A stretch of 64,000 bases of DNA from an uncultured Dehalococcoidales bacterium (GTDB lineage: Bacteria > Chloroflexota > Dehalococcoidia > Dehalococcoidales > GCA-2688105), in contig CAZCLE010000001.1 in assembly GCA_964499445.1 (NCBI GenBank), forward strand, positions 29,615 through 93,614, read 5' to 3'. The translations under genes and the position numbers were made by a program. Shown here piece after piece: positions 7,319 through 60,671 of the stretch. The notes under the pieces are model-generated. The model was not told the DNA's origin. It searched no databases and saw only the letters and a program-made list of their open reading frames with translations. Position 1 is the first letter of the stretch. Each line of letters opens with the position of its first letter.

Positions 7319-7477
7319 ATTCAGGACACAAGAACTGACAATTTACCCCAACGCTTGGAAAGACCTTTTGGTAAGGCTCTAAGCCAATTGGGGCGACAAC
7401 GCACACTCCCCCCTTCCAATCTGTCGGGGAAGCTGAAATGACTTTATTGGGAAGCCCCCGGCAATAGAGGGAATTAG

Positions 7478-8125
7478 TTATGTAGAAACCTTTCGCAGCC
7501 CGTTATCATCCAGCATAGGTCTCACGGTTTGTATCACCTCGTCGATAACATCAGTCAGATTCAGATTCTCCAGTTTGAGTTCCGTCTTCCCCGCTTCTCC
7601 CTTAGTCAGGTCAATGACCTTGTTAATCAGGTTCAGCAGGTGCTGACCACTACCCAAGATGCCGCTGAGACACCGCCTCTGTCCGTCATTGATGTCACCG
7701 GGGACGCCATCCAGCATCAGCTTAGAAAAGCCAATAATGGCGTTAAGCGGGGTACGTAGCTCGTGAGACATACTGGCTAGAAACTCGGACTTAGCCCGGC
7801 TATCTGCTGCCAGCTCCCTGATTTTCTCCATAAGTTCTCGCTGTTGCGCCATCAGTTGTGCATTCTTTTCCTGAAGTTCCCGCTCTGCCCGCTTGCGCTC
7901 AGCCAGTTCTCGCTGAGCCTTCTGGTACTGCCTGCCGTTCTCGATTACAAGGTGCTGCCTCTCATAGCCCTTCCGTCCCAATATGAGCGGCAAGCTTCTA
8001 CCGGTGTTCTCACCATCGTTAACTATCAGGATGTTCTCTTTCCTGTTCCTCCCTTTCTCCTTTTTCATTTCCTCTCCGCCTACACCCCTTCTCTCCAACC
8101 TCAATCCCTGTGGCAGTAAAACCAA
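7478..8125 (-). pseudogene. Truncated sensor histidine kinase: receiver remnant, coiled coil and HisKA, with no HATPase domain
   Basis: 215 aa. ILIVNDGENTG...GYE looks like a receiver start. It is followed directly by a coiled coil and an H-box (SEFLASMSHELRTPLNAIIGF). The ORF stops about 90 aa later with no N/G1/F/G2 boxes, and 160 bp of non-coding DNA follow. Confidence 0.55.
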
Positions 8126-8535
8126 ACTTCATCTGTCTGGGGCTCAATGTAGCAAATGTCATTGCCGATACAAGCCAGATTTATCATGTGTGGCTTGCCT
8201 CGCTCCTCAATTATGGCGACCGACATTAGGAACCCGCTTCTGGCGGCTTGGCGCTGCAATTGAAGAGCATAATCATCACAATCGTACTTAACATCCAGCG
8301 GGCAGACGCCGTCCTCTCCCGCCACCAGGTGAATGCACTCATTAGTGTCATCCTCAGCCAGCCAGGACTTAAGTTCCTCAAGCGAGGTAAATTCGCGCGG
8401 TTCAATTGGTTTCGCAACCACAACTTCCCCGGTAGCTCCTGAATCAGCGTATACCGGTGAATGATTGTTCAGGAATAGTCCAGAAACAACCAGGACCAAG
8501 AGGGTGAAGATTATTATGAATTGCTTGTTTCTCAT
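8101..8535 (-). CDS. Small secreted protein, possibly with a transglutaminase-like Cys-His-Asp fold
   Basis: 144 aa. N-terminal signal-like segment MRNKQFIIIFTLLVLVVSGLF...VYA. The order CDDYA...ARSGF...HMINLA...IEPQTDE resembles a transglutaminase-core C/H/D arrangement. This is a weak, by-eye call. Confidence 0.35.
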   Translation of the reverse strand: MRNKQFIIIFTLLVLVVSGLFLNNHSPVYADSGATGEVVVAKPIEPREFTSLEELKSWLAEDDTNECIHLVAGEDGVCPLDVKYDCDDYALQLQRQAARSGFLMSVAIIEERGKPHMINLACIGNDICYIEPQTDEVWFYCHRD

Positions 8536-8640
8536 TGCTAGACCTCTGCTTTTCTCCTGCTTTCAGCATACAGCCAAGATGAGAAACAAAGCATAAAAAT
8601 CCGTGGGGAGTTATAAACATTCCGTAAACATTTTTGGGGC

Positions 8641-8670
8641 AATAAAAAAGGCACCCGAAAAAGAGTGCCC
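8641..8670 (-). terminator. Possible rho-independent terminator after the OmpR-type regulator
   Basis: The minus strand reads GGCAC-tctttttcgg-GTGCC followed by TTTTTTATT. The stem is short. Confidence 0.35.
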
Positions 8671-8695
8671 CACTGATGGCTTTACTTGCTATGAG

Positions 8696-9400
8696 CTATT
8701 CGCGTTTTGCCACAGCTTTAAACTGATAGCCCACGCCAGGAATAGTGATGATATACTTTGGACTTTCTGGGTCGGGTTCCAGTTCCTTCCGCAGACGACC
8801 TATGAAAACACGAAGATACTCCTTTTCCACTCCGTACTCTGGTCCCCAGAGCTTGCCTAGCAGCATGCTATGGGTAAGAACCTTATTCGCGTTAAGTACC
8901 AGTTCCTGGAGGAGATTATATTCGGTAGGTGTCAATCTGACCTCACGGCTGGCAACAGTTATCCGTCTTTGAGAAAAGTTAATCTCGATGTTATCGCAGG
9001 TAAAGGAAGGTCGAGCCGGTATAGCATGAGCCGCCTCGGTGCGGCGAAACACCGCCCTGACCCGAGCTATCAGCTCCTCCACCCCAAATGGCTTGGTGAG
9101 ATAGTCATCGGCACCGAGGTTCAGGCATTCTACCTTGTCGGCTACATCACCCCGGGCACTGAGCATGATAATCGGGATTTGCGACCACTCACGGAGTCGG
9201 CGGCAGACCTCAAAGCCGTCTATCCCGGGCATCATTATATCCAGAATCAAGAGGTCAGGCAGTTCTCTTTCAATAATCTCGAGGGCTTCAGCACCATCCA
9301 CCGCCATAAGGGTCTGGTAATCCCTGGCTTCCAGGTTAGCGCGGACGAATTTTCTTATTACCGGGTCGTCATCAACAATGAGAATACGAGGGCGGCGCAC
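8696..9400 (-). CDS. OmpR/KdpE-like response regulator (receiver + winged helix)
   Basis: 234 aa. ILIVDDD...DLLILDIMMPGIDG...K receiver. The C-terminal LTPTEYNLLQELVLNANKVLTHSMLLGKLWGPEYGVEKEYLRVFIGRLRKELE matches the trans_reg_C pattern. Confidence 0.9.
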   Translation of the reverse strand: MRRPRILIVDDDPVIRKFVRANLEARDYQTLMAVDGAEALEIIERELPDLLILDIMMPGIDGFEVCRRLREWSQIPIIMLSARGDVADKVECLNLGADDYLTKPFGVEELIARVRAVFRRTEAAHAIPARPSFTCDNIEINFSQRRITVASREVRLTPTEYNLLQELVLNANKVLTHSMLLGKLWGPEYGVEKEYLRVFIGRLRKELEPDPESPKYIITIPGVGYQFKAVAKRE

Positions 9401-9406
9401 TTTACC

Positions 9407-9784
9407 CTACTTCCCCAGGACTTGCTCAACCTGACGCAACAATTCATCAACGCCGAAAGGCTTAACCAGATAGCCAGCAGCTCTCATACTGCGAATTTTG
9501 TACTCCCCACCCTCCGGCACCACGGCAGTCATGATAATCACCGGTATTTTCCGAAACTTTGGGGTAGTCTTGAGAACCATGAGAACATCCCAGCCTGACC
9601 TACCCGGCAGCATCAGGTCAAGGAAAATTAAATCGGGGCGTTCGAGCTGTGCCAGCGCTAATCCCTTCTCACCGTCAGCGGCGACAGCCACCTGGTATCC
9701 TCTGGCGGTTAGGTTAGCCTTCACCAGCTTCTGGAGGTTCAGCTCGTCATCAATAACCAGAATCTTAGCCATCCTGCCCCTCAC
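9407..9784 (-). CDS. Single-domain CheY-like response regulator
   Basis: 125 aa. ILVIDDE...DLIFLDLMLPGRSG...YLVKPF. It overlaps the stop of the upstream kinase by 20 nt, so they form an operon. Confidence 0.85.
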   Translation of the reverse strand: MRGRMAKILVIDDELNLQKLVKANLTARGYQVAVAADGEKGLALAQLERPDLIFLDLMLPGRSGWDVLMVLKTTPKFRKIPVIIMTAVVPEGGEYKIRSMRAAGYLVKPFGVDELLRQVEQVLGK

Positions 9785-12700
9785 TTTGGCTCACCGGCAA
9801 GTTTAAGCTAAACTTTGAGCCCTCCCCCAGCTTGCTCTCCACCCAGATTCTCCCACCGTGAGCCTTCATGATGCCCTGACAGATGGATAGCCCCAAGCCA
9901 GTCCCGCTTTTCCGACCGGTAACAACACTCTCAGTCTGATAGAAGCGGTCAAACACCCTGTCCAGAAGCTCAGGAGGGATGCCCTGACCCCTGTCGGTAA
10001 CACTAATAATAATCTGGTCCCCGGCAAGCTGCGCCTCAATTGTGATTGGGCTGTCCTTGCTGGAGAACTTGGTTGCATTTTCCACCATGTTGGTTATGAC
10101 CTGCCCGATGCGCATTTCGTCAACAAATACGGCAGGTAACTCTGCCGGGACTATCACCTCTAGTTGATGGTGCTCGGTGAGGCTAGCCAGCCTATCGCTA
10201 ACTGAGTCCAGTATCTCAGAAATCCGGTAGTCACCTTTCTCTAACTTCAATGCCCCAACATCAAGGCGTGACATATCCAGCAGGTCACTGATTAAGCTGG
10301 TGAGCCGGTCAGTCTCCTGGTCAATAGACTGAAGGAAGTCCCTCTGTTCCTCCTCACTCCACTTGACATCAGGCTGAAGCAGTGTGGTAGCAAAGCCCTT
10401 GATGGAAGCCAGCGGGGTGCGCAGTTCATGAGAAATGTTAGCCACTAGCTCAGACCGCAGCCGGTCAAGCTCCTTGAAGGCTTCTGCCTCCCGTAATTTC
10501 TCCTCCACCCGCTTTAACTCCTCCTCCCCTTCAGCACTAGCCAGAGCGTAGGCGACATCAGTGGCTAGTTCCCGGAACAACTCGTGCTCTTCCTCATCCT
10601 GAGCCATCTCGGGTGAAACAGAAACGCATACTATCCCGTAGACTCTACCTTCGTACTCCAACTGATTCACAAAGCCAACCCCGCCGCCCATAAAGCAGTC
10701 AGCCAGCACACACTCTATATGTTGTCTCTTAACATCATCGCAGGCGGTAAAAGGCGGCTCTTGCGCCAGTACTTCACGGACACACGGCGGGTATTCACCT
10801 CGCTTCATCTGCTCAAGGAGAATTGGGAAACTTTTTTCAGCGCCAGAACCCGCCGCTGAGATGTAGTTTCCATCTTCATCCAGGAGCAGCATCCAGGCAA
10901 TTGAGTAGCCGCGAGCCTCAACCAGGATGTTACAGCTCTGCTGAATCAGGCGCCCTTTATCCTTCTCATGAGCAATAAGCTGATTGATACTCCTGAGCGC
11001 CCTGAGCATATTGGTAAGATGTACGATTCGCGCCTCCGCCTGCTTGCGCTCGGTGATGTCCTCCAGAATTCCATCAAAGTATAGAATCTTGCCGGCATCG
11101 TCTCTCACCACAACTTTTGTACTCAGTACCACTATTTCAGTTCCATCCTTTTTCCTGAAGCGTAGCTCCTTGGCTACCTTCCCTTTACCCGAAGCTATTT
11201 CCTCAAGAACTCGTTCTCTTTCCTCTGGATGCACATACAGGTCAGAAACATTCATCTGCAGCAACTCTTTCCGGCGGTAGCCGGTAATCTTTTCCATAGC
11301 CGGATTTACTTCCAGGAACCTGCCGACGGGTTCTGGTGTGTTTCTAAATACCCCCAATTTAACGTTGCTAACCAGGCTTCTATACTTTTCCTCGCTCCCC
11401 CGTAACGTCTCCTCCGCCCGCTTGCGTTCGGTGATGTCCATTAATGAGGTAATGCTCTTTTTTGTTCTTGGAATAACCTCTACTATCAGAAATATGTCTT
11501 TTATATTTCCTTCCTTATCAAGGAAACGAAACTCATAATGGGTAGGTACCGCTTCTCCCCCTGGTTCCCTCCTCTTGACATGATACTGTTTCATCCGTTC
11601 CAGGTCTTCTTGGTGAACAAATTCCGTCCATCTCTTTTTACCTTCGATTTCCTCTCTGGAATACCCGCTCAATAACTCGAATCGATGGTTAGCTAGAGAG
11701 ATTGTAGTGTCCTCTTCAATAATTGCCATAGCAGTCCCGGTATGTTCAAATGTGGTTCTGTATCTCTGCTCGCTCTCCCGTAGTGCCTCCTCCGCCTGCC
11801 TGCGTTCGGTGATGTCGGTAAAGAATGAAAAGAAGTATTCTAAATCTCCTTTGCTATCGAAAATCGGGGTTGTGAAAACTTCCACCGGAACCAGGGAACC
11901 GTCCTTGCGGATGTATTCTTTCTCAAAGCGCTGTGGTTGTCGGGTACGAATTATTTCCTCCGCCGCCTTGGCCACGACCTCGCGCCACTCAGGAGGCGTG
12001 AGTTCCACATCCCACTTAAGTTCATGCAGCTCCCCCCTACTGTAGCCTAGCAGTTCACAGTAAGCAGTATTGAAAGTCCTTAGCCGTCCATCAGAGTAAC
12101 CTACAGCGAACGGCTGTGAAGAACTCTCTAGCACATTGGCAAGGAACTGCGCGTGCTCCTCAGCCTGCTTGCGCTCGGTGATATCCAGCACGCTCTCCAC
12201 AATGCCTATAATATCGCCGTTTACATCTCGAACCGGATAACCTCGTACAGACCACATTCTCCCGTCGGGGGTAGTCAGTTCCCCTTGCTGGGGTTGGTCG
12301 GTTTCAATGGCCTTGGCAATGGGGCACCCTACGCAAGGCTCACTACGCTGATGCCAGACCTCATAGCAATAGCGCCCCACCAATTGTGCAGGCGGCGTGT
12401 CTACCGATTCACCCGCAGCTCTATTCGCCCATATCAGCCGATGCTCCATATCCTGAAATACCACTAGCTCGCTCATGCTATCGAGAATGGCGGTTTTTTC
12501 CTGTTCAGTCCTTCTCAGCGCCTCCTCCGCCTGCTTGCGCTCGGTAACATTCCTCAGTACCTGAATAGCGCCGATAATCGTACCGTCGCTCTCCTTTAGC
12601 GGGGCTCCAATAGCCTCCCAATAGCTTTCACCCTGAGTGCCTGCCGCGACAGGTCGATAAACAACATCCGTTTCAATTTGCCCGGTCTTCATAGCCTTTA

Positions 12701-14045
12701 TAGTAGGGCAACCTTCGCAGGGTTCATCCCTCAACGCATAGGCTTTATAGCAGGGCTGCCCTACTGCATCAGGACTGCGGGTAAGGGCAGCTTTGTTTGC
12801 CCAGACAATCTTCAAGTTTCTGTCCACCTGTCGTATCACGTCTGGCGAACTGTCAAGCAGTGTCTGCAGTTGTGCCCTACTCTTCCTTAATTCTTCCTCT
12901 ATCTGCTTGCGCTCGGTGATGTCGGTAAATGTTCCCTGATAACCTATTACGTTCCCGCTTTCATCCTTGTCTACAACCGCTGTGATAAGAATGTTGATGA
13001 TACTGCCATCTTTCTTCCGGAAATCGACAGCTAAACCTTTAGCAAAGCCTTGTTGCTCAATTGCTTGGGTAATCCTTTCCCTTTCCTCCGGTTTTTCATA
13101 TAGTTCTAGTATTCTAACCTTTCTTAATTCGTTGCTATTTTCATAGCCAAGAAGCTCCACAGTAGCATCATTGAAGTCTATCCATCTACCATCTTTGGAA
13201 GTAATGAAAACGCAATCCCTCGATGTTCTGAAGAAGGTTCGGTATTTCTCCTCACTCTCCCGCAGCGCCTCCTCCGCCTGCTTGCGCTCGGTGATTTCAG
13301 CACGCAACTGTTCGTTGATTTTTGCAAGCTGGCTAGTCCGTTCCTCAACCCGTATTTCTAATTCGTCGTGAGCCTTTTGCAGCGCCTGTTCCACCTGCCG
13401 GCGTTGCAACGCTACCGATGCCAGCTTTATAAATGTCTCTATAAGGCTTTCTTCTCCCAACTGGGTTCCCTTGCGGGTAAGGATACTGGCACTGCCAAAC
13501 AGTTCTCCTTTCCAGACAAAACCCATAGCATATATGTCGCCCAAATCGAGCAGTTTTTCAATCGCACGGCAGACGGTCCTTGGTATTCTCCTAAAGGAAA
13601 ATTCGTACAAGCCTCCGGGGACCTTCTCTAGCTTACCACTACCGAGGCCGAGCCTCGCTTCGTCGTCTATCATGAGAGACATCCCAACCGGGTGCTTTCC
13701 CAAGATCCTAACAGCACTCCCCATCTTTCCGCCTACCCCCAAGACCGCGCGTACGCAGACATTATCAGTCGCCCCCTCGAACGAATTCACCAAGATAATA
13801 GAGTTGCCAACAAGCTCCCTTAACTGTCTTCCTATGAATTCGTAGATATCCTCTTCAGGCGAAAGCTCAAGAAAACCTATTGATGTCCTGGACAAAAATG
13901 CCAGGTCACGCATATACTTCTCGTCTTCCTTCGTCCGTTTGTCTGTGGTCGCTGAGCCTTCAAATTCAACAACGCGTCGGCGGATTTCCTCCAGTTCACA
14001 TATTAGTTGTTTCTTAGTTTTGCCACTGTTTTCCATTTCCCACAT
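9765..14045 (-). CDS. Large cytoplasmic multi-PAS/GAF sensor histidine kinase
   Basis: 1426 aa. At least 7 PAS-type modules are separated by ITERKQAEE-type linkers. It also has a GAF-like segment, an H-box (ISHELRTPLASIKGF) and HATPase boxes (NMVENATKF, DRGQGI, GTGLGLS). Confidence 0.9.
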   Translation of the reverse strand: MWEMENSGKTKKQLICELEEIRRRVVEFEGSATTDKRTKEDEKYMRDLAFLSRTSIGFLELSPEEDIYEFIGRQLRELVGNSIILVNSFEGATDNVCVRAVLGVGGKMGSAVRILGKHPVGMSLMIDDEARLGLGSGKLEKVPGGLYEFSFRRIPRTVCRAIEKLLDLGDIYAMGFVWKGELFGSASILTRKGTQLGEESLIETFIKLASVALQRRQVEQALQKAHDELEIRVEERTSQLAKINEQLRAEITERKQAEEALRESEEKYRTFFRTSRDCVFITSKDGRWIDFNDATVELLGYENSNELRKVRILELYEKPEERERITQAIEQQGFAKGLAVDFRKKDGSIINILITAVVDKDESGNVIGYQGTFTDITERKQIEEELRKSRAQLQTLLDSSPDVIRQVDRNLKIVWANKAALTRSPDAVGQPCYKAYALRDEPCEGCPTIKAMKTGQIETDVVYRPVAAGTQGESYWEAIGAPLKESDGTIIGAIQVLRNVTERKQAEEALRRTEQEKTAILDSMSELVVFQDMEHRLIWANRAAGESVDTPPAQLVGRYCYEVWHQRSEPCVGCPIAKAIETDQPQQGELTTPDGRMWSVRGYPVRDVNGDIIGIVESVLDITERKQAEEHAQFLANVLESSSQPFAVGYSDGRLRTFNTAYCELLGYSRGELHELKWDVELTPPEWREVVAKAAEEIIRTRQPQRFEKEYIRKDGSLVPVEVFTTPIFDSKGDLEYFFSFFTDITERRQAEEALRESEQRYRTTFEHTGTAMAIIEEDTTISLANHRFELLSGYSREEIEGKKRWTEFVHQEDLERMKQYHVKRREPGGEAVPTHYEFRFLDKEGNIKDIFLIVEVIPRTKKSITSLMDITERKRAEETLRGSEEKYRSLVSNVKLGVFRNTPEPVGRFLEVNPAMEKITGYRRKELLQMNVSDLYVHPEERERVLEEIASGKGKVAKELRFRKKDGTEIVVLSTKVVVRDDAGKILYFDGILEDITERKQAEARIVHLTNMLRALRSINQLIAHEKDKGRLIQQSCNILVEARGYSIAWMLLLDEDGNYISAAGSGAEKSFPILLEQMKRGEYPPCVREVLAQEPPFTACDDVKRQHIECVLADCFMGGGVGFVNQLEYEGRVYGIVCVSVSPEMAQDEEEHELFRELATDVAYALASAEGEEELKRVEEKLREAEAFKELDRLRSELVANISHELRTPLASIKGFATTLLQPDVKWSEEEQRDFLQSIDQETDRLTSLISDLLDMSRLDVGALKLEKGDYRISEILDSVSDRLASLTEHHQLEVIVPAELPAVFVDEMRIGQVITNMVENATKFSSKDSPITIEAQLAGDQIIISVTDRGQGIPPELLDRVFDRFYQTESVVTGRKSGTGLGLSICQGIMKAHGGRIWVESKLGEGSKFSLNLPVSQSEGQDG

Positions 14046-14143
14046 CCTGAAATCAGATTATAATGCCACTTAGCTATCTTGTAGCCCAAAATCGCCGTTT
14101 GTCAATAACTTGCCTTATCAGCTTGAGGATAAGATAACACCGA

Positions 14144-14353
14144 TTAGTTACTTTCAATGACCCGGTTGGCCTCTATCTCAAACCTATTTACTTCATCTTG
14201 AGTGAATAGCCTCCATCCTCTCCTATCCCGGTGTCTAGCTTCTTGGAGGACGCCTTCCTTGAGCCAGCGAAAGAAAGTAGTTCTACTCACTCCGATTATC
14301 CGGTAAACATCGGCAGTTCTATAATAGGTTTGACCATTTACTCTTACCGGCAT
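14144..14353 (-). CDS. Small MerR/excisionase-family HTH protein (HTH_17-like)
   Basis: 69 aa. YYRTADVYRIIGVSRTTFFRWLKEGVL...RGWRLFTQDEV is typical of the excisionase/MerR-like HTH. Confidence 0.6.
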   Translation of the reverse strand: MPVRVNGQTYYRTADVYRIIGVSRTTFFRWLKEGVLQEARHRDRRGWRLFTQDEVNRFEIEANRVIESN

Positions 14354-15108
14354 ACCCAGAGCCCTCCAACATTATTCAGGTATACCCTAATATATTCAGT
14401 CCGCTGAGTAAATGCCCTTTTAGTACCCCCACTAGGCATGACTTTAGTCCTACCTAGTTATGGCTCTGCCTCCTTCCGCGAAAAAGTTACGTACTGTGGG
14501 AAAGGCAAAAGGCTAAGCTGAAGTCTCTTTGTGCCTTTCTAGCCGTTTAAATTTGACTATAGTAGTTATTATTATACCACTTTTGCTACTTTGTCAATAT
14601 TTTATCATTTTTTAGTATCATTTCTAATCTTGTCCTCTACTTTTCTGATAGCCAGTAGGCAATCATGTTTTTTATCTACAGACATACCGGTAACTCCAGC
14701 TGGCAACAAGTTGCACACAACACGCTTTGTTGCTACAATTACTATAGAGGGGGAGAGGTGGGGGTCAAATATTGAGATTAAAGGCTGGTTTAGAAGTTCT
14801 ACCTAATTGCAACCGCAGCTCCGGGCATTCTCAGAATTGCCACCTGCCCGGGAACAGCCTTGCCTTAACACATTATCGTCTTCGCCATTGAGGTGAAAGA
14901 CATGACTACTTCCAGTGAGAGGGACACCGGCAAGATGAAGCCAATGACCCCGGTAGTTACTGATATGGTAACTGATAAGTTGGTAACTTCATCCCGGGTA
15001 TCTGTCCGTTTAGTGGCTATTCCCTTCAATCAGGAGGAAATGGCAACAAAGGCTTACTATAAAACAATTTGCCGGTCTGGATAAAATCTTGCCCAAGGAG
15101 GTAAAAAG

Positions 15109-17346
15109 ATGAAACCGATATTGATAGTAGATGACGAAGCTGTTATGAGAGAGTCTCTCCAAGACTGGCTGACTGACGGCGGTTATCAGGTGGAGACTGC
15201 CGGGGAGGGAGAGGAAGCGTTAGAAGCTATCGCCGAGCGGGACTTTGGTGTTGTCGTCCTTGACCTGAGGTTGCCGGGAAAGGACGGGATTGAGGTATTA
15301 CGAGAGGCTAGAGCGAAAAGACCGCAGCTCAAGGGAATCATTATCACCGCTTATCCTTCAGTGCCGACAGCGGTAGAGGCAATGAAGGAGGGGGCTATCG
15401 ATTATCTACCCAAACCCTTCGACCTTGATGACCTGGAGAAATTAATCCGGGAAACTCTGGGACCGGTGCAGGTAGAGATAAGACCAAAGGCCGCCCCTGA
15501 GACAGCTATAGCCGAACCGCCTGTAGCAGAGGAGGTAACGGAGGCAGAAGAACGGACACGGGTTGAGGAAGTGATTGATGAGGCTACGGGGAAAATATGC
15601 TTGCCTCCTTGTCAGATAGCCTGTCCTATTGGAGAGGACATTCAGCGCACTAATGCTATGATTGCGCTGCTTCCTCTGGATGCCGAGGAGGCTTCCAGCC
15701 AGATAATAAAGATAGGTGATGAAATTTATGAGAAGAACCCTCTATTCACGGTATGCAGCTATATTTGCGGGCTCTGTGAGAAGGAGTGCAATTACAAAGA
15801 CGAGACCGGAGCCATAAGACGAAAGATGCTCAAACGATTCCTCACCGATTTTTACCTTCCATATCTGGAAACCAAGCCCCCATTTCCCCAACCTACCCAG
15901 GAAAAGGTGGCTGTGATTGGTGGGGGACCGGCGGGGTTGATGTGTGCTTACATGCTGAGTAAAAACGGCTATCAAGCGACTATCCTGGAAAGGAGTCCCC
16001 AGTTAGGGGGAGCTTTGAGATACATCCCTCAATATCGTCTTCCCAGAGACATTGTGGATACTACTTTAAATAGTCTGGTAAGGATTGCCCATACTGATGT
16101 TGAATTCGGAGTGAAAATGGGCAACGGTGAAAAAACGTTGGATGACCTCAAGAATGAAGGCTACCGAGCTATATTCATTGCTACCGGCACCCCTTCTCCC
16201 CGGCCGCTCACCTTTGATGGGAAACCAGTAGCCGGAGCCGATCTGGACGGGGTTGCCTTCGGGTTATATCTCCTCATTGATGTGAACCAAGGTAGGGTTT
16301 CTCATCAGCTCCTTCGCCGGCTCTTTGAGGGTAAGAGGGTAATTGTAGTGGGCGGGGGCAATGTGGCCTTTGATGTGGCCAGAACCGCCCGGCGGCTCGG
16401 TGCCGAAGTTTCCCTTGTCTGCCTGGAATGTGAAAATAAATTAGCCAAGGACGGGATTCCAGCCGATGTAGAAGAGATAGAAGGTGCTAAAGAAGAAGGC
16501 ATAAAAATAGACTATTGCCGAGGTGTAGAAGAGATAATCGGAGAGGATGGAAAATTCAACAAAATAAAATGTCCCCGATGCACATCGGTCTTTGATGAAA
16601 GCGGATTCAATCCCAGGTTTGACCGAAATGATGTCATATATCTTGAGGGTGATGTACTGCTTATCACCATAGGGCAGGGTTCGGAGCGGACATTTTTCCA
16701 GCAGGAGGGCTTGCTGGATGAGAGAGGCAGGACTGATATTGACCGGCTTACTCTTATGAGCAATCGCCAAGAAGGAGTTTTCGTTGGCGGCGATGTCAGG
16801 CGGATAGGTCTCGCCGCAAACGCAATGAGAGACGGAATGATAGCCGCCGAGTCTATAGACCGCTACCTGAGGGGTGAGGACCTGCAAGCAGGCAGAGAAA
16901 AGGAGTATGAAGATGCTGCCATTCCCAAGCTTATGGATTACAAGCCTCAGCCTGAGTCGGAATGGGTACTGCTGGAAGAGCGGTTAAACTTTGAACTGTT
17001 TGAAAAAGGTTTCACCCTGGAAGAGGCGGTGAAAGAGGCCAGAAGGTGTCTGTGCTGTGGCCCATGTAAAAGCTGTAAAGCCTGTGTCGCCCTGGAACTT
17101 CAGCCTGAGATACCACCAATTGAAGTCAACCAAGATATATGTAGTGGGTGTGGAATTTGTGTCGCGGTATGTAGCTATGATGCCGCCAAACTGGTAAAAT
17201 CTAGTAACGGGCTGGTATCAGTTATAGATGACATTAAGTGTAAGCGATGCGGTGTATGTAGTGCTGCCTGCCCTATTGATGCCATTACCATTAAGCAGTT
17301 TACCACTGAGCAGATTATGGCTGAAATCGAGGGGATGCTGGTATAA
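15109..17346 (+). CDS. Receiver domain fused to a GltD/NfnB/SudA-like NAD(P)H-FAD oxidoreductase, with a C-terminal 2x[4Fe-4S] ferredoxin
   Basis: 745 aa. REC is ILIVDDE...VVVLDLRLPGKDG...YLPKPF. An N-terminal Fe-S motif (CLPPCQIACPIGEDI) is typical of glutamate-synthase small-chain-like proteins. Dinucleotide folds are VAVIGGGPAGL and VIVVGGGNVAFD. C-terminal motifs are CLCCGPCKSCKAC, CSGCGICVAVC and CKRCGVCSAACP. Confidence 0.85.
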   Translation: MKPILIVDDEAVMRESLQDWLTDGGYQVETAGEGEEALEAIAERDFGVVVLDLRLPGKDGIEVLREARAKRPQLKGIIITAYPSVPTAVEAMKEGAIDYLPKPFDLDDLEKLIRETLGPVQVEIRPKAAPETAIAEPPVAEEVTEAEERTRVEEVIDEATGKICLPPCQIACPIGEDIQRTNAMIALLPLDAEEASSQIIKIGDEIYEKNPLFTVCSYICGLCEKECNYKDETGAIRRKMLKRFLTDFYLPYLETKPPFPQPTQEKVAVIGGGPAGLMCAYMLSKNGYQATILERSPQLGGALRYIPQYRLPRDIVDTTLNSLVRIAHTDVEFGVKMGNGEKTLDDLKNEGYRAIFIATGTPSPRPLTFDGKPVAGADLDGVAFGLYLLIDVNQGRVSHQLLRRLFEGKRVIVVGGGNVAFDVARTARRLGAEVSLVCLECENKLAKDGIPADVEEIEGAKEEGIKIDYCRGVEEIIGEDGKFNKIKCPRCTSVFDESGFNPRFDRNDVIYLEGDVLLITIGQGSERTFFQQEGLLDERGRTDIDRLTLMSNRQEGVFVGGDVRRIGLAANAMRDGMIAAESIDRYLRGEDLQAGREKEYEDAAIPKLMDYKPQPESEWVLLEERLNFELFEKGFTLEEAVKEARRCLCCGPCKSCKACVALELQPEIPPIEVNQDICSGCGICVAVCSYDAAKLVKSSNGLVSVIDDIKCKRCGVCSAACPIDAITIKQFTTEQIMAEIEGMLV

Positions 17347-17375: not shown

Positions 17376-18473
17376 ATGGAACAAATCCAGTCCTTGCAGA
17401 TGCGGCAGGAGCTAACACAAATCCTCCGGATGGAACAGGCTAACCTGCTGGAGATGCCTGAGGATGAGTTTAACAGGCTAATCACCGAGATGGAGCAGGG
17501 TCCCCTTTTCCGAAGGCTATACCAGAGAGAAAAGCTAATCTGCCATCAGAGATTTCCCAGAACTGATATTTCCTCTGGTTTTTATCAACTCAAAGAAGAG
17601 ATAGCAGCCGATACAGGCTCTGTGGATGTTGAATCTCTTCTGCTGAACAAAGAGTATATCGTCCGTCAAATACAGAAACTAGGGCTGGAGAAATTCAAAC
17701 AGTATTTCCTGTTCTCCGAACCAGCGATGACCCTGGAACAAATCGCCAGAGAGTGCGACCTGGAGGTCGCCGAGGTTCAGACGATAAACAACCTTATTGA
17801 TGAATTCTCTATTATGAGTGAGTTTTATCATCCCTCTAATGTCACCTCAGGCGACATTCACTATTCCAAGGTTGCCTCGGTGGAGAAGGATGAGAAGGGT
17901 TTTATTATCGGCTATTTTTCAGCTTCTTTCGCCCGAGGTCGGTATGCGATTAATTATGAAAGATTTGAGGAGTTAAGAACGGCAGGTGCGTTCACCGAAA
18001 CTGAAATCAAGGAAGCCAGACAGTTATTCAAGAGGCTGGAACTAATCAATAGCCGTAAGGATACACTAACTCAGATACTGCAAAATATTATTGACAAGCA
18101 GGCACTCTACCTAGAGTCTGGTGATTTGAAGTCTCTTTTATCCTTCAGTCAAAAGGAGCTAGCCGAAAAAATTGGACTGGCTCCGAGCTCAGTCAGTCGT
18201 GCTATAAGAAGCAAAAGTATAGACACCCCCTGGGGTAGAGAAGTCCCTCTAAAATACTTCTTCCCCAGGCCAAAGAGGTTCAGGAAGGAACTGCTCAGGC
18301 AGCTCCTTGAAACCGATAATGGACTTTCCTCAGACGAGGCAATACGGACCAAGCTCTGGGAGAAATTTGGCGTGGCCATCTCCCGGCGCTCGGTAGCCAA
18401 CTTGAGGAAGGAACTTAAGTTTCCTGCAGCCCACGGAAAACGGCATCCTATCCAGAGGAGGCAGACAAGATGA
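17376..18473 (+). CDS. Short, divergent RNA polymerase sigma-54 (RpoN)-like factor
   Basis: 365 aa. The Gln/Leu-rich N-terminus LQMRQELTQILRMEQANLLEMPEDEFNRLITEMEQGPLF resembles region I. ELAEKIGLAPSSVSRAIRSKSIDTPWGREVPLKYFF resembles the sigma-54 HTH plus the (E)LKYFF segment. ISRRSVANLRKEL resembles the RpoN box ARRTVAKYRE. It is shorter than typical RpoN, and the middle core-binding part was not confidently recognised. Confidence 0.6.
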   Translation: MEQIQSLQMRQELTQILRMEQANLLEMPEDEFNRLITEMEQGPLFRRLYQREKLICHQRFPRTDISSGFYQLKEEIAADTGSVDVESLLLNKEYIVRQIQKLGLEKFKQYFLFSEPAMTLEQIARECDLEVAEVQTINNLIDEFSIMSEFYHPSNVTSGDIHYSKVASVEKDEKGFIIGYFSASFARGRYAINYERFEELRTAGAFTETEIKEARQLFKRLELINSRKDTLTQILQNIIDKQALYLESGDLKSLLSFSQKELAEKIGLAPSSVSRAIRSKSIDTPWGREVPLKYFFPRPKRFRKELLRQLLETDNGLSSDEAIRTKLWEKFGVAISRRSVANLRKELKFPAAHGKRHPIQRRQTR

Positions 18474-20428
18474 GTGTTGTTTACACCGAGCGAGAAAAGT
18501 GCAAAGGATGCTATACCTGCATACGTAACTGCCCAGCTAAGGCAATCAGGGTAAGAGAGGGCTTGGCTGAAGTGATAAAGGAACGCTGTATCGCCTGCGG
18601 CATCTGCGTCCAGATCTGCATGGCAAAAGCAAAGCTAGCAGAGAGCGACACAGGAATAGTTTGGCAACTACTGGGAGGGGAGGAACCGGTAATTGCTATG
18701 CTTTCATCTCCATTTCCCGCCGCCTTTCCCGAAGTTCGCCCGAGGCGGTTGGTAACCGCCCTGAAAAAACTGGGGTTTAGTGAGGTGATGGAGGATTCCT
18801 TCGGTGCCGAGCTCGTCTGCCGTGAATATGCCCGCCTTATAAAGGAAAACAGTGATAAACCTATCCTCTCATCTACCTGTCCCGCAGTAGTGTCCTACAT
18901 TGAGAAGCACTATCCCCAGCTCATCGATAATCTGGCACCCACTGCTTCCCCCATGATAGCTATGGGTAGAGTGATTAAACGGCAGTATAATCCGCAGGCT
19001 AAGGTGGTCTTCATTGGTCCTTGCGTGGCTAAGAAAGCTGAGGCTAAGGATGAGAATGTTGCCGGGGTGGTGGACGCCGTCCTGACCTTTGCTGAGATGA
19101 AGGAGATGTTCGCCGCTAAAGGTATCAATCCCGAAACTGAGGAAGAAGGTCAATTCTCGGGGCCTAAGCCCAACCTGGGTCGCCTGTTCGCCATAACCGG
19201 GGGACTGCTCAAGATAGCCGGACTTTCCGATGACATCATAGCCAATGAAATTATCAATGCCTGTGGCCGGGACTATACGCTGAATATCGTTCGGGAGTTT
19301 GCCGAAGGCAATATCACTGCCAGGTTCATCAGCCTATGTTTCTGTGAAGGCTGTATTGACGGGCCGGTCATTGATAATGACCTAAGCATTTTTAAACGAA
19401 GGGAAATAATCAGCAATTATACTCTAAGCCAGTCAGACCCGACTCAGACCGAGAGGGACATAAAGGAGTATGCTAGCATTGACCTCAACCGCAAATTTAC
19501 CCACCGAGGTGTCGGCCTGCCGACGCCCAATGAGGAAGATGTTCAACGGGTTTTAAAGAAAATTGGCAGGGTGGACCCCCACTACCGAATGAATTGTGGT
19601 GCTTGTGGCTATAGCGGTTGCCGAGAGCTGGCAGTCGCTGTCTGTCAGGGTCTAGCTGAGACTGAAATGTGCTGGCCGTACGTGCTTGAGAAGTTGAGGA
19701 CTACTCAAGAAGAGTTAATCCAAGCTGAGAAACTGACCTCTCTGGGTCAGATGGCAGCCTCTATTGCTCATGAGGTTAATAATCCTCTGGCTGGCGTCCT
19801 CGTCTATACCCAATTGTTGGCTAAAAAGATAGCTGGTGACAAATTCTCCAAAGAGGTTGCTCTTGACTACCTATCGAAAATGGAACCGGAACTCACTCGC
19901 AGCACCAGGTTAATCCGAGGCCTTCTGGATTTCGCCCGACAGTCGCCCCCAACCCTCAGGGAGGTGAACCTCAACGAGGTCATTAACCGAGCCCTTGACC
20001 TCGCGGCTCATTCAGCTAAGCTACAGCATATCCAGATAATAAAAGAGCTCAACCCCTCCTTGCCTGAGCCCATGGCTGACTTTGACCAGCTTCAACAGGT
20101 CTGTGCCAACCTTATTATGAATGCTATCCAGGCAATGTCTGAAGGCGGCATGCTAACCCTCCGCACCTCAGTCGCTAACGATAGTCAGCTCAAGATAGAG
20201 GTTCAGGATACCGGTTGTGGCATTTCTCAGGAAAATATGCGCAAGCTGTTCACCCCCTTCTTCACCACTAAGGGAAAGGGAAAGGGGGTAGGTCTGGGTC
20301 TGGCGGTGGCCTATGGAATTATCCAGCGCCATCACGGCAAGATAGAAGTGCAAAGTAAGGAGGGAGAGGGTACTACCTTCACCATCCGCCTACCCCGGCA
20401 CCACGGGAAAAGGCCAGAAGATAAATAG
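18470..20428 (+). CDS. Sensor histidine kinase with an N-terminal 2x[4Fe-4S] ferredoxin, a [FeFe]-hydrogenase large-subunit-like (H-domain-like) domain and a putative Fe-S (CxxC...C...C) domain
   Basis: 652 aa. CKGCYTCIRNCP and CIACGICVQIC form the ferredoxin part. Hydrogenase-like motifs are SSTCPAVV (vs TSCCP), GPCVAKKAE (vs MPCxxKxxE) and LCFCEGCIDGP (vs MxCxxGCxxG). MNCGACGYSGCRELAVAVCQG...C follows. The transmitter has H-box SIAHEVNNPL, NLIMNAIQA, DTGCGI and GVGLGLA. Confidence 0.8.
   Translation: MSVVYTEREKCKGCYTCIRNCPAKAIRVREGLAEVIKERCIACGICVQICMAKAKLAESDTGIVWQLLGGEEPVIAMLSSPFPAAFPEVRPRRLVTALKKLGFSEVMEDSFGAELVCREYARLIKENSDKPILSSTCPAVVSYIEKHYPQLIDNLAPTASPMIAMGRVIKRQYNPQAKVVFIGPCVAKKAEAKDENVAGVVDAVLTFAEMKEMFAAKGINPETEEEGQFSGPKPNLGRLFAITGGLLKIAGLSDDIIANEIINACGRDYTLNIVREFAEGNITARFISLCFCEGCIDGPVIDNDLSIFKRREIISNYTLSQSDPTQTERDIKEYASIDLNRKFTHRGVGLPTPNEEDVQRVLKKIGRVDPHYRMNCGACGYSGCRELAVAVCQGLAETEMCWPYVLEKLRTTQEELIQAEKLTSLGQMAASIAHEVNNPLAGVLVYTQLLAKKIAGDKFSKEVALDYLSKMEPELTRSTRLIRGLLDFARQSPPTLREVNLNEVINRALDLAAHSAKLQHIQIIKELNPSLPEPMADFDQLQQVCANLIMNAIQAMSEGGMLTLRTSVANDSQLKIEVQDTGCGISQENMRKLFTPFFTTKGKGKGVGLGLAVAYGIIQRHHGKIEVQSKEGEGTTFTIRLPRHHGKRPEDK
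19724..20332 (+). repeat. Copy 1 of a 609-bp duplicated transmitter module (DHp + CA)
   Basis: It reads base-for-base the same as 20997-21605 (offset 1273) where I compared the lines. The encoded 200+ aa are identical in the ORF track. One mismatch sits just upstream (19723 A vs 20996 G), and similarity decays after 20332/21605. Confidence 0.85.
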
Positions 20429-20444: not shown

Positions 20445-21701
20445 ATGGAAGAGACTATAACAACCAAACCTACCCTAAAAAGCACCCTGCAGCGCTGGGA
20501 AGAAAGCATAGTAACCAGAGTTGCGGAATGGTTGCCACAGAGCGACACCAGGGGTGTGCGAAGCCCTCACTTGTGGATAATCACGGCTCTAATGGCACTT
20601 GGCACGGTCATTTACTATATAGACCAGACCCCCCTGGTTAGCGTGCCACCATTTAATTACAGCTTTTTTACTAGTGTCCATGACCTGCATCGAACATTAT
20701 TTTTCATTCCTATAATCTACGCGGCGCTGGTATTCAGGGTTCGGGGAAGCCTAATCGCTTCCTTCGTTTTTCTCGGCGTGGTGTTGCCACGTGCCCTGCT
20801 ATTCTCCCCCTATCCCGACCCACTACTCAGGCCACTTCTCCTTGTCGCCTTGGCCACTTTTGTCACTCTGTTAATAGCGACACAGCTTAATCGAATTGAA
20901 AGGGAAAGAAAGGCTCGCGCTGAACTGAGCACAGCCTACCAGGAGCTTAGCGAATATGACCAGCGGCTGAGAGAAAGCCAGGAGCAACTAATCCAGGCTG
21001 AGAAACTGACCTCTCTGGGTCAGATGGCAGCCTCTATTGCTCATGAGGTTAATAATCCTCTGGCTGGCGTCCTCGTCTATACCCAATTGTTGGCTAAAAA
21101 GATAGCTGGTGACAAATTCTCCAAAGAGGTTGCTCTTGACTACCTATCGAAAATGGAACCGGAACTCACTCGCAGCACCAGGTTAATCCGAGGCCTTCTG
21201 GATTTCGCCCGACAGTCGCCCCCAACCCTCAGGGAGGTGAACCTCAACGAGGTCATTAACCGAGCCCTTGACCTCGCGGCTCATTCAGCTAAGCTACAGC
21301 ATATCCAGATAATAAAAGAGCTCAACCCCTCCTTGCCTGAGCCCATGGCTGACTTTGACCAGCTTCAACAGGTCTGTGCCAACCTTATTATGAATGCTAT
21401 CCAGGCAATGTCTGAAGGCGGCATGCTAACCCTCCGCACCTCAGTCGCTAACGATAGTCAGCTCAAGATAGAGGTTCAGGATACCGGTTGTGGCATTTCT
21501 CAGGAAAATATGCGCAAGCTGTTCACCCCCTTCTTCACCACTAAGGGAAAGGGAAAGGGGGTAGGTCTGGGTCTGGCGGTGGCCTATGGAATTATCCAGC
21601 GCCATAAAGGTAGAATAGGAGTGCAAAGTAAGGAGGGGGAGGGTACTACCTTTACCATCTATCTACCATTGCACCATGAAGAACATGAAGAAAAAGGCTA
21701 A
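20445..21701 (+). CDS. Membrane-bound sensor histidine kinase (about 4 TM segments), whose transmitter is identical to that of the preceding kinase
   Basis: 418 aa. Hydrophobic segments are HLWIITALMALGTVIYYI, LFFIPIIYAALVF, LIASFVFLGVVL and LLLVALATFVTLLIA. A coiled coil follows, then the same LIQAEKLTSLGQMAASIAHEVNNPL...GLAVAYGIIQRH block as ORF 18470-20428. Confidence 0.85.
   Translation: MEETITTKPTLKSTLQRWEESIVTRVAEWLPQSDTRGVRSPHLWIITALMALGTVIYYIDQTPLVSVPPFNYSFFTSVHDLHRTLFFIPIIYAALVFRVRGSLIASFVFLGVVLPRALLFSPYPDPLLRPLLLVALATFVTLLIATQLNRIERERKARAELSTAYQELSEYDQRLRESQEQLIQAEKLTSLGQMAASIAHEVNNPLAGVLVYTQLLAKKIAGDKFSKEVALDYLSKMEPELTRSTRLIRGLLDFARQSPPTLREVNLNEVINRALDLAAHSAKLQHIQIIKELNPSLPEPMADFDQLQQVCANLIMNAIQAMSEGGMLTLRTSVANDSQLKIEVQDTGCGISQENMRKLFTPFFTTKGKGKGVGLGLAVAYGIIQRHKGRIGVQSKEGEGTTFTIYLPLHHEEHEEKG
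20997..21605 (+). repeat. Copy 2 of the 609-bp duplicated transmitter module
   Basis: See 19724-20332. Confidence 0.85.
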
Positions 21702-23089: not shown

Positions 23090-23125
23090 AGGCTATCCTG
23101 ACCATTCAAGATAGCCTTTTCTTTT
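23090..23125 (+). terminator. Hairpin plus T-run after the NtrC-type gene (alternatively a palindromic protein-binding site)
   Basis: AGGCTATC (23090-23097), a 12-nt loop, GATAGCCT (23110-23117), then TTTTCTTTT. Confidence 0.4.
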
Positions 23126-23140
23126 GGCAAGAAAATTGCA
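23125..23140 (+). promoter_or_regulatory. Sigma-54 (-24/-12) promoter candidate
   Basis: TGGCAAGAAAATTGCA, with GG at 23126-23127 and GC at 23138-23139. This is the canonical 12-nt register of TGGCAC-N5-TTGCA. The predicted TSS near 23150 leaves a leader of about 65 nt with AGGAGGAGG before ATG 23217. Confidence 0.5.
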
Positions 23141-23216
23141 TCTAAATAGGGTGGAGGTGATAGAAATGGAAAAGCAGGCAGTCCTAAAGGAAGAGAAAAT
23201 AGGAGGAGGTGGAAAG

Positions 23217-24245
23217 ATGAAACCGATATTGATAGTAGAGGATGAAGTCATTATGAGAGAGTCTCTCCGAGATTGGCTGACTGACAGCGGTTATCACGTG
23301 GAGACTGCTGAGGAAGGAGAGGAAGCGTTAAAAACTATTGCCGAGCGGGACTTTGGTGTTGTCATCCTTGACCTGAGGTTGCCGGGAAAGGACGGGATTG
23401 AGGTACTAAGAGAGGCCAAGGAGAAAAGACCGCAGCTTAAGGGAATCATTATCACCGCTTATCCTTCGGTGCCGACAGCGGTAGAGGCGATGAAGGAGGG
23501 GGCTATTGATTATCTACCCAAACCCTTCGACCTTGATGACCTGGAAAAATTAATCCAGGGCACTCTGGGACCGGTTCAGGTAGAGATAAGACCAAAGGCT
23601 GTTACTGAAGAAGCTGTGGCTGAACCACCTGTAGTAGAGGAGGCTAAGGTTGAGGAGGTCATAGCCGTAGCTCCGGAGGAAATCCCGGTTCACCTCAAGC
23701 AAGGCAAGGCTCACTTTGAGGCTTGTAACTACCGGGAGGCTCTTAAGGAGTTTGAGGCTGTCATCGCCGTGGCTCCGGGCAGCATTGAGACCCGTGTCTG
23801 GATACGAAAGACCCATGAAGCACTAACCAAGCCCAAGGTTGAGGGGGTAGTTGAAGGGGAAGCGGCTCCTGTCGCTGAGGAAGCCAAGCCAAAGGAGTGC
23901 CTGTGGATGAAGCTGGGGATGGTTTCTTACCGCATCTGCACCAATGACTACAACTGTCTCACCTGCGAGTTTGACCAGACGATGCAGGAGAAGATGGCTA
24001 GTGGTGAAGCTCCAGAGCTTGATGCCGCACTGGAAAGATTTAAGGCACTACCTGGAAATCAGAGGCTCTGCCGCTATGCCCTTAAGGGCGATGTCTCATA
24101 CCGGATTTGCACCCGCCTCTTCCAGTGTGACACCTGCGAGTTTGGTCAAATGATGGAGGATGCCCTCCAGCAGAAACTGGCTAAGCTGGCGACACGACGG
24201 GAGGCCCTGCTCAAAAAGGAGCAAAAAGCTGAAGCCAAAGCGTAA
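23217..24245 (+). CDS. Response regulator: a receiver, a helical (TPR-like) linker, and two copies of a C-X12-C-X5-C-X2-C motif
   Basis: The ORF track starts at 23124. I prefer ATG 23217 (MKPILIVEDE, AGGAGGAGG upstream), which parallels ORF 15109. The receiver is about 90% identical to that of ORF 15109. C-terminal motifs are CLWMKLGMVSYRICTNDYNCLTCEF and CRYALKGDVSYRICTRLFQCDTCEF. Confidence 0.8.
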   Translation: MKPILIVEDEVIMRESLRDWLTDSGYHVETAEEGEEALKTIAERDFGVVILDLRLPGKDGIEVLREAKEKRPQLKGIIITAYPSVPTAVEAMKEGAIDYLPKPFDLDDLEKLIQGTLGPVQVEIRPKAVTEEAVAEPPVVEEAKVEEVIAVAPEEIPVHLKQGKAHFEACNYREALKEFEAVIAVAPGSIETRVWIRKTHEALTKPKVEGVVEGEAAPVAEEAKPKECLWMKLGMVSYRICTNDYNCLTCEFDQTMQEKMASGEAPELDAALERFKALPGNQRLCRYALKGDVSYRICTRLFQCDTCEFGQMMEDALQQKLAKLATRREALLKKEQKAEAKA

Positions 24246-60667: not shown

Positions 60668-60671
60668 TTGT

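Follow-up and report, generated by a model that had tools for sequence, protein, structure and literature searches.

The closest described counterparts of the protein analysed here are the sensory [FeFe] hydrogenases, among which HydDB has since 2016 listed a class named "[FeFe] group C1, histidine kinase-linked (putative)" (PMC5037454). Group C1 proteins that carry a HATPase_c domain were noted in Hydrogenedentota in 2024 (PMC11406978), and the presence of group C in Chloroflexi has been reported by a preprint. Two sensory proteins, TmHydS from Thermotoga maritima (group C, M2f) and TamHydS from Thermoanaerobacter mathranii (group D, M2e), both take up the 2Fe cofactor in vitro (PMC10055695, PMC8163306). 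The present work concerns a 64-kb stretch of DNA from an uncultured Dehalococcoidales bacterium (contig CAZCLE010000001.1; the whole of this stretch is referred to as the window), and in particular a gene at positions 18470-20428 whose product joins a hydrogenase-like module to the transmitter of a histidine kinase. The best explanation of this sensor kinase is that it is a soluble, cytoplasmic member of the putative sensory [FeFe]-hydrogenase class, of a kind resembling HydDB group C1, no member of which has to our knowledge been tested or characterised.

The gene and its domains lie at the following coordinates in the window.

18470..20428, plus strand: sensor histidine kinase gene, 652 amino acids (aa), with a ferredoxin-like domain, an H-domain, an Fe-S domain, a dimerisation and histidine phosphotransfer (DHp) domain and a catalytic and ATP-binding (CA) domain
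18482..18631, plus strand: N-terminal 2x[4Fe-4S] ferredoxin motifs, aa 5-54, matched by Fer4_10, Fer4 and Fer4_9
18686..19366, plus strand: H-domain, Fe_hyd_lg_C (PF02906), aa 73-299, E=2.6e-52, model positions 2-245 of 245
19589..19675, plus strand: C-terminal Fe-S domain, FeS (PF04060), aa 374-402, E=2.2e-8
19742..20398, plus strand: transmitter, with HisKA/DHp at aa 425-491 and HATPase_c at aa 537-643, above the Pfam cutoffs

An earlier note on this DNA had proposed that an H-domain-like module is fused directly to a kinase transmitter, and this is borne out by the Pfam matches to the H-domain and to HisKA and HATPase_c, which fall on the same 652-aa open reading frame (ORF). The two ferredoxin motifs which the note had placed ahead of the H-domain are likewise found, and their cysteines (C11, C14, C17, C21, C40, C43, C46 and C50) are each 96-100% conserved across 120 homologues. 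The further CxxC...C...C domain which it had described in front of DHp corresponds to PF04060, with a motif that is exactly Cx2Cx4Cx16C (C376, C379, C384 and C401, 99-100% conserved in the same homologues). No PAS family is matched in the sensor protein at E<=0.01 in the Pfam scan, in agreement with the note, and HisKA begins at aa 425. The curated models that score best on the protein are those of bacterial hydrogenases, TIGR04105 at 202 bits and TIGR02512 at 106 bits, both below cutoff. In the transmitter, the phospho-acceptor H434 (codon 19769) stands within AHEVNNPL, and together with N551, D580-x-G-x-G, FFTTK and G606-x-G-L-G-L it makes up the boxes of a class I HisKA kinase, which are invariant in 58 sequences; the closest solved relative of the transmitter is ZraS (E=2e-44).

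The structure prediction that the earlier note had recommended as a check was made with AlphaFold 2, and gave a confident fold for the H-domain, with a predicted local distance difference test score of 80-95; confidence was poor for the metal-cluster domains and for the helices of DHp, a domain which is normally dimeric. In Foldseek searches the N-terminal half of the model matched the solved H-domains of HydABC, CbA5H and DdH over about 360 columns at about 4.3 Å, and the C-terminal half matched ZraS and HK853. The model has helices at residues 402-416 and 422-455, with C401 at the N-terminal end of the helix that continues into DHp.

The assignment of individual residues requires a comparison with a catalytic enzyme, for which the H-domain was mapped onto Clostridium pasteurianum CpI, whose sequence as used here reproduces the published numbering at the 19 positions checked. 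The codons named in the earlier note, at 18878, 19022, 19337, 19343 and 19352, all encode Cys (C137, C185, C290, C292 and C295 respectively), and its view that the cluster-ligating cysteines are retained is confirmed. The putative [4Fe-4S]H ligands C137, C185, C292 and C295 align with CpI C300, C355, C499 and C503, and are conserved in 119-120 of the 120 homologues. Pairwise HMMER comparison with solved [FeFe] hydrogenases sets SSTCPAVV on TSCCPAW and IGPCVAKKAEA on VMPCTAKKFEA, with a weak extra segment that sets LCFC-EGCIDGP on VMTCPEGCISGG. For this third motif (L3) the note had the Cys codons right, but C290 is not a ligand, and the ligand spacing is Cx2C, the rule across the whole sensor family, rather than the Cx3C of CpI. 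The observation of the H-domain and its motifs is real and lies far beyond chance.

Other counterparts in CpI are K358 for K188, E361 for E191, M353 for G183, C299 for T136 and M497 for C290. On this mapping the proton-relay Cys and other proton-pathway residues are missing from the sensor, and both of the Met residues that frame the 2Fe site are replaced, M353 by G183 and M497 by C290, a position which is C, H or Y in the clade of Dehalococcoidia sensors to which the window protein belongs and L in most other relatives (C 44, H 42, Y 24 and L 6 of the 120 homologues). The earlier note had drawn attention to Thr in place of the proton-relay Cys, and to the loss of that Cys in sensory hydrogenases. 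T136 does precede C137, and the loss agrees with the Ala found in TmHydS (A131), but the Thr itself is not a conserved feature, for position 136 is N in 56, T in 43, S in 11 and P in 6 of the 120 homologues.

The relatives of the sensor protein number in the thousands. Identity to it is 71-100% among the best 120, which have the same architecture and are labelled Dehalococcoidia or Dehalococcoidales wherever they are named, while a HMMER scan of representatives with the sensor part alone yields 958 clusters at 50% identity with E<=1e-30. The kinase follows directly after the Fe-S domain in 47 of the best 150 representatives of such clusters, and among the full-length sensors in the best 80 genome loci 62 of 70 are kinase fusions and 8 of 70 are fusions to a sigma-54 activator. 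When 140 relatives were aligned and the 81 that do not match the HisKA-type transmitter of the window protein were scanned with Pfam for other outputs, PAS was found in 31, a sigma-54 activator module in 16 and GGDEF in 4, and the closest of the 81 carries a HisKA_3 kinase. Since the fused outputs are so varied (kinase, PAS, sigma-54 activator and GGDEF), the sensor module behaves as a portable input domain, of which direct kinase fusion is the commonest form. Direct kinase fusion has already been catalogued and is not new. The distinction that the earlier note had drawn from the lack of PAS therefore stands in part: the protein does differ in this from TmHydS and HfsB, but its architecture is not a novelty, being the commonest output among its nearest relatives.

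In a neighbour-joining tree of H-domains, computed without bootstrap and without TmHydS, any other characterised sensory reference or Nar1, the window protein falls in a Chloroflexota clade beside the relative P0121, followed by the sensors of loci L008, L010 and L009. All of these lie inside the sensor radiation among kinase-fused sensors and far from group A HydA and CpI. None of the representatives agreed with TmHydS in the residue numbers published for that protein. Membership of the sensor protein in the sensory-type [FeFe]-hydrogenase radiation is supported by these results.

The same material bears on the highly improbable alternative that the protein is a catalytic hydrogenase which happens to be fused to a kinase, or else a decaying remnant without function. 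TmHydS and TamHydS retain a turnover that is low and measurable (PMC10055695, PMC8163306), which speaks for some catalytic capacity, but the loss of the proton-relay Cys and of other proton-pathway residues counts against a catalytic role, as does the fusion of the module to kinase, sigma-54 activator, PAS and GGDEF outputs in the manner of a sensory input. A decaying remnant is difficult to reconcile with the hundreds of intact homologues, 71-100% identical, whose ligands and kinase boxes are invariant.

Evidence on what the class might sense comes from its genomic context in other phyla, for which ORFs within 10 kb on either side of the sensor were called in the 80 best genome loci and labelled by phmmer. 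A string that recurs in Ignavibacteria, Planctomycetota (including a Kuenenia metagenome-assembled genome, MAG), Myxococcota, Bacteroidota and others consists of genes for NuoE-like, NuoF-like and HydA (about 575 aa) proteins, the sensor kinase, a small protein with a receiver (REC) domain and a REC-kinase hybrid. A HydA-type hydrogenase is present in 47 of the 80 loci, HydG in 16, HydE in 14 and HydF in 14. In two of them (L030 and L060) NuoE, NuoF, HydA, the sensor kinase and REC proteins are followed by HydE, HydG and HydF, all above the NCBIfam cutoffs, and the HydA of both is a group A enzyme by NCBIfam. In L008, from an uncultured MAG labelled Clostridia, hydG, hydE and hydF lie directly upstream of a kinase-fused sensor (6229-12061 of that locus); no catalytic HydA was found there within 10 kb on either side, and these maturases may serve the sensor itself. 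L008 is also the nearest outgroup to have the same NtrC, Cys-rich and NuoEF context as the Dehalococcoidia clade. The occurrence of sensors inside HydABC clusters, often together with hydE, hydG and hydF, supports a hydrogen-related role for the kinase-fused class, and this linkage to hydrogenase and maturase genes is the strongest support available for such a role.

For the window protein itself, the reading that it is a hydrogen-responsive sensor kinase is given about an even chance. The domain anatomy, the conservation of the ligands, of the gene cassette and of a promoter element, and the link of the class to hydrogenase and maturase genes are established by the analysis; that a 2Fe subcluster is present, that H2 is what is sensed, in which direction the kinase is controlled and to which partners it passes its phosphoryl group are inferences. 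On this hypothesis the H-domain would hold a [4Fe-4S] cluster on C137, C185, C292 and C295, with C295, which corresponds to CpI C503, as the point of attachment of the 2Fe subcluster, and it would react with H2 slowly because the proton-relay Cys is missing. Electrons would then be shared among the N-terminal pair of clusters and the C-terminal one (Cx2Cx4Cx16C), and since C401 stands at the base of the helix that enters DHp, autophosphorylation at H434 would be governed by the redox state or the conformation of the sensor module. The phosphoryl group would pass to the adjacent NtrC-type activator, which together with the short sigma-54 of the cassette would fire a conserved -24/-12 promoter before the gene for a REC-Cys-rich protein and, in relatives, a promoter before Hdr-like or NuoEF genes as well; it would probably also pass to the REC domains of the REC-GltD and REC-Cys proteins. 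The proposed role of the system would be to match the expression and activity of low-potential flavin/Fe-S oxidoreductases to the availability of hydrogen, and in sister genomes the oxidoreductases so controlled would include a [NiFe] group 3 hydrogenase.

The elements of the cassette on which this mechanism draws are as follows.

15109..17346, plus strand: REC-GltD, 745 aa, with a REC domain, a GltD/NfnB-like NAD(P)H flavin/Fe-S oxidoreductase and a C-terminal ferredoxin
17376..18473, plus strand: short sigma-54-like protein, 365 aa, Sigma54_DBD E=7.7e-21
20445..21701, plus strand: second, membrane-type histidine kinase, 418 aa, by Pfam; also present in L084, L085 and L091
21676..23046, plus strand: NtrC-type response regulator with REC, sigma-54 AAA+ activator and HTH_8 domains, Sigma54_activat E=8.5e-75
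23125..23140, plus strand: -24/-12 promoter element of sigma-54 type, TGGCAAGAAAATTGCA, with one mismatch to TGGCAC-N5-TTGCW
23217..24245, plus strand: REC domain with a Cys-rich module, Response_reg E=7.6e-31

The stop of the sigma-54-like gene overlaps the start of the sensor gene. Its product, which consists of a Gln/Leu-rich N-terminus and the DNA-binding domain of RpoN, scores 89.8 bits against the rpoN model TIGR02395, well below cutoff, and may be a dedicated sigma-54 paralogue. The NtrC-type regulator is the presumed phosphoryl acceptor of the sensor. The coding sequences for DHp and CA in the sensor gene (19716-20332) and in the second kinase gene (20989-21605) differ at 1 of 617 nucleotides (nt), while in L084 and L085, which represent the locus of the window in two Joint Genome Institute metagenomes and are 99.9% identical overall, the two transmitter copies differ at 24 of 617, and the 23 positions at which the window and L084 disagree all fall within them. 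The pattern suggests either gene conversion in the strain or an artefact of assembly or polishing that made the copies alike. With identical DHp domains, the two kinases could moreover form heterodimers and share a response regulator.

The promoter element TGGCAAGAAAATTGCA falls in the intergenic space that separates the activator gene from the REC-Cys-rich gene. The probable start codon of the latter, ATG 23217, follows about 77 nt downstream and is itself preceded by GGAGGAGG. A near-identical 16-mer occurs at the same intergenic place in L001, L003-L006, L084 and L086-L088 (10 loci, counting the window). The sigma-54 consensus is not enriched across the window as a whole (30 matches, 30.5 expected), so that the argument for this promoter rests on the conservation of its position. 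A second element, on the opposite strand, is present in L003-L006 and faces divergent genes, which in L003 and L004 form an Hdr-like operon. The roughly 1-kb non-coding stretch at 14040-15108, upstream of REC-GltD, holds no convincing promoter for the cassette; a look-alike there, CTGGCAACAAGTTGCAC at about 14701, was rejected as a sigma-54 promoter for its N4 spacing, one base short.

The Cys-rich module of the 23217-24245 gene contains two C-x12-C-x5-C-x2-C repeats (VSYRICT...C..CEF; DNA repeat 23922-23989 / 24093-24160) and is matched by no Pfam family. In L008 it occurs as a protein of its own (121 aa) or as part of a fusion with a NuoG-like subunit, and it may be a metal-binding or Fe-S-binding domain of the regulated complex. 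The REC-Cys-rich gene is a probable sigma-54-dependent target, and its product a probable second phosphoryl acceptor. REC-GltD is matched by Response_reg, Fer4_20, Pyr_redox_2 and Fer4, and the DNA that encodes its REC domain shares 91% identity with the corresponding part of the REC-Cys-rich gene (23204-23503). The presence of REC domains on subunits of redox enzymes suggests that these are placed under direct post-translational control by the two-component system.

The region around the cassette is dense in signalling genes. Just upstream of it, on the opposite strand, is a gene for a 1426-aa histidine kinase with multiple PAS and GAF domains (9765-14045, minus strand), near which are genes for an OmpR-type response regulator and a small REC protein (8696-9400, minus strand). 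Elsewhere in the window, the segment 52001-54800 has a GC content of 0.36 against about 0.50 and contains a DNA methylase-like gene (52243-53580) and, on the other strand, an unannotated ORF of 420 aa; it may have been acquired horizontally as a restriction-modification island. A gene for a Z1-domain protein (3438-5600) is also located in a stretch of lower GC.

The wider setting of the sensor within Dehalococcoidia was assessed in 13 distinct loci of the clade: that of the window (with which L084 and L085 are the same locus), L001, L003-L007 and L086-L091. The short sigma-54-like gene is immediately upstream of the sensor in all 13, and the NtrC-type activator and the REC-Cys-rich gene are downstream of it in nearly all. 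The genes beside this cassette vary. An HdrA-like protein of 1113 aa is encoded there with HdrC-like and HdrB-like genes in L003, L004, L086, L087, L090 and L091; L005 and L006 have NuoE, NuoF and a truncated NuoG-like protein that carries a REC domain; and L007 has a NuoG-GltD fusion with NuoF and NuoE, a set similar to the Stn transhydrogenase, whose components are HydABC-like (PMC7483475). In three of the 13 (L086, L089 and L091) the cassette adjoins a [NiFe] hydrogenase that is accompanied by Hyp/HycI genes. In L086 and L089 the small and large subunits of this hydrogenase, an MvhD-like protein and HycI belong to one string of genes with the cassette, the order in L089 being HdrA-like, REC-GltD, MvhD, [NiFe] small and large subunits, HycI, HypA, HypC, sigma-54 and sensor, and in L091 the hydrogenase is 6 kb from the cassette. 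The REC-GltD of the window is 83% identical to the one inside the [NiFe] string of L089, and the window looks like the L089-type arrangement minus its hydrogenase genes.

Farther along the window, at 59993-63118 on the minus strand, there is a set of genes for a NuoE-like protein, a NuoF-like protein (637 aa) and a 224-aa Fe-S protein which resembles the N-terminal part of NuoG/HydA and has no H-domain, directly followed by a gene for adenine deaminase. The set resembles a module of HydABC/Stn type without its catalytic partner, and equivalents of its genes are directly downstream of the sensor cassette in L005 and L006.

Several results weigh against a hydrogen-responsive kinase, the first of which concern the genes that such a protein would be expected to keep as company. 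The earlier note had seen no hydE, hydF or hydG in the window, and both of the methods applied agree with it: a Pfam scan of ORFs of at least 120 aa shows ThiC as the only radical-SAM enzyme in the window, and tblastn with verified HydE, HydG and HydF gives no match in its 64 kb. Nor does the window contain a hydrogenase gene of any kind, and in the other 12 loci of the clade there is neither a maturase nor a catalytic [FeFe] hydrogenase. A HydF search seeded from L008 returned no Chloroflexota-labelled protein among the best 120 of 7808 matches, a result that cannot count as absence, and nothing usable was found in the literature on hydEFG in Dehalococcoidia or Chloroflexi. We know of no sensory [FeFe] hydrogenase for which signalling has been demonstrated. 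With regard to the mechanism, the C-terminal cluster of TamHydS has been reported not to be reduced under H2, and argued not to change its redox state (PMC13104023), so the transmission step is uncertain.

The second group of adverse results concerns the pocket. A set of 39 HydABC-linked sensors shares 116 positions with a conservation of 85% or more, of which the Dehalococcoidia clade retains 95 and has changed the other 21. The changed positions include the counterparts of CpI A230 and P231, which are invariant in the 39 sensors, have the same residues in CpI, and are S and S/A in the clade; they include also the positions of M497 (C/H/Y) and G418 (A). The position of I268 is Asp (D109) in 112 of the 120 homologues. 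The L008 sensor, at 49% identity, keeps LAPSF. In the Chloroflexota locus L007 the sensor (7923-9869 of that locus) has His for C292, Gly for E191 and ES for the GG motif, and from these substitutions the H-cluster site appears to be decaying in this lineage. The idea that the pocket has been specifically degraded in the clade was rejected, for by our own tally about 4 of 19 pocket positions are changed, compared with 17 of about 97 others.

These results bear most directly on the alternative that the kinase senses redox state and has no 2Fe subcluster, an account which is on balance doubtful and which nevertheless carries a substantial share of the probability. The H-domain of the clade would then keep only its [4Fe-4S] cluster, as in Nar1/NARF (IOP), which have the H-domain fold and the [4Fe-4S]H cysteines, lack the proton-relay Cys, and provide a precedent for H-domains that work without the 2Fe subcluster. 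The chain of four clusters would report the reduction of ferredoxin or of a partner flavin/Fe-S enzyme, with the same wiring downstream. The survival of the cysteines does not by itself distinguish an H-cluster protein from one that, like Nar1, has [4Fe-4S] only. Such a sensor would fit the lack of a maturase or [FeFe] hydrogenase near it in the 13 clade loci, whereas maturases are common beside relatives in other phyla. It would fit as well the replacement of the A230 and P231 counterparts, the introduction of residues that are polar or capable of acting as ligands (D109, H/C/Y290 and H/E293), the degenerate site of L007, and neighbours which are mostly electron-bifurcation-like modules of Hdr, GltD and NuoEF type and not hydrogenases; the H-cluster motifs of group C1 proteins have, moreover, been doubted in print by the 2024 study (PMC11406978). 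On the other side, K188 (111 of 120), E191, S160, P161, G183 and P184 remain strongly conserved, and the changes in the clade are, on the tally given above, not clearly enriched around the 2Fe site. The [NiFe] hydrogenase beside three clade loci suggests that hydrogen is the variable that matters, and the nearest outgroup, L008, has hydGEF adjoining its sensor.

H-clusters bind CO and react with O2, and the pocket is remodelled in the clade, so that a sensor which responds not to H2 but to another small molecule acting on the H-cluster or on the Fe-S chain (CO, O2 or NO), with a regulon that is switched by oxidative or CO stress, has also to be weighed. It is improbable, for no neighbouring gene suggests a function related to CO or oxidative stress and the class is tied to hydrogenase operons.

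A further and rather unlikely proposal is that the Dehalococcoidia sensor has been detached from [FeFe] operons and rewired to its own short sigma-54, an NtrC-type activator and REC domains on redox subunits. Were this true, the enzymes under control would be electron-bifurcation-like modules of Hdr, GltD and NuoEF type and, in some genomes, a [NiFe] hydrogenase, and either HydEFG would be kept solely to mature the sensor or the remodelled pocket (A230S, P231S, Asp109, His/Cys/Tyr290) would sense without the canonical 2Fe subcluster. The value of the finding is its testability, because the kinase gives a direct readout: TmHydS and TamHydS have no readable output, and the kinase fusion offers a one-protein assay through H2-dependent autophosphorylation of H434 and transfer to the NtrC-type regulator. 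It lies also in the clade-specific rewiring towards Hdr-, GltD- and NuoEF-like modules and [NiFe] hydrogenases. The family is large and is spread over many phyla of anaerobes, so it may be a main bacterial route for perceiving hydrogen, and the Dehalococcoidia clade would serve as a test both of H-domain sensing without nearby maturases and of [FeFe]-type control over [NiFe] and Hdr-like modules.

Comparison with known systems places the protein among several partial analogues. The HoxBC-HoxJ and HupUV-HupT systems (HydDB group 2b) consist of a low-activity [NiFe] H2 sensor whose signal reaches the hydrogenase genes by way of a two-component system and an activator of the NtrC family; they differ from the present one in metal centre and fold, and in that sensor and kinase are separate there and one polypeptide here. 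Nar1/NARF differ in being eukaryotic Fe-S assembly factors that have no 2x[4Fe-4S] domain, no Cx2Cx4Cx16C domain and no signalling output. On the output side, the transmitter is nearest to ZraS and to the AtoS/ZraS models, and is likewise paired with an NtrC-type sigma-54 activator, but the inputs of ZraS and AtoS are periplasmic or PAS domains, in contrast to the Fe-S hydrogenase-like module found here.

Among the sensory [FeFe] hydrogenases, TmHydS shares with the window protein the N-terminal 2x[4Fe-4S] domain, an H-domain with four ligand Cys and no proton-relay Cys, and a Gly at the position of CpI M353 (G177 in TmHydS, G183 here; PMC10055695), and both it and TamHydS have the C-terminal Cx2Cx4Cx16C motif (PMC8163306). 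TmHydS continues from this point into a PAS domain and has no kinase, whereas here the Fe-S domain runs straight into DHp and CA; it has Ser at the M497 position where the clade has C, H or Y, and the counterparts of A230 and P231 are replaced here. TamHydS resembles the window protein in having no PAS domain and the same three-part Fe-S architecture, and it is adjoined by a kinase-like gene and a regulator gene, but no output domain is fused to it and its M353 position is occupied by Ser; the Leu at its M497 position is that of most kinase-fused sensors. The window and its clade also depart from sensory groups C and D in having no catalytic [FeFe] hydrogenase operon beside the sensor, compared with 47 of the 80 loci of relatives. 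The likeness to HydDB group C1, a class set by sequence-similarity clustering, is one of description and kinase fusion: in both, a sensory-type H-domain is tied to a histidine kinase, which is fused here and followed by a second kinase gene. The C1-like relatives differ in that they sit in HydABC clusters, while the clade of the window has a sigma-54/NtrC cassette beside Hdr, GltD, NuoEF or [NiFe] genes.

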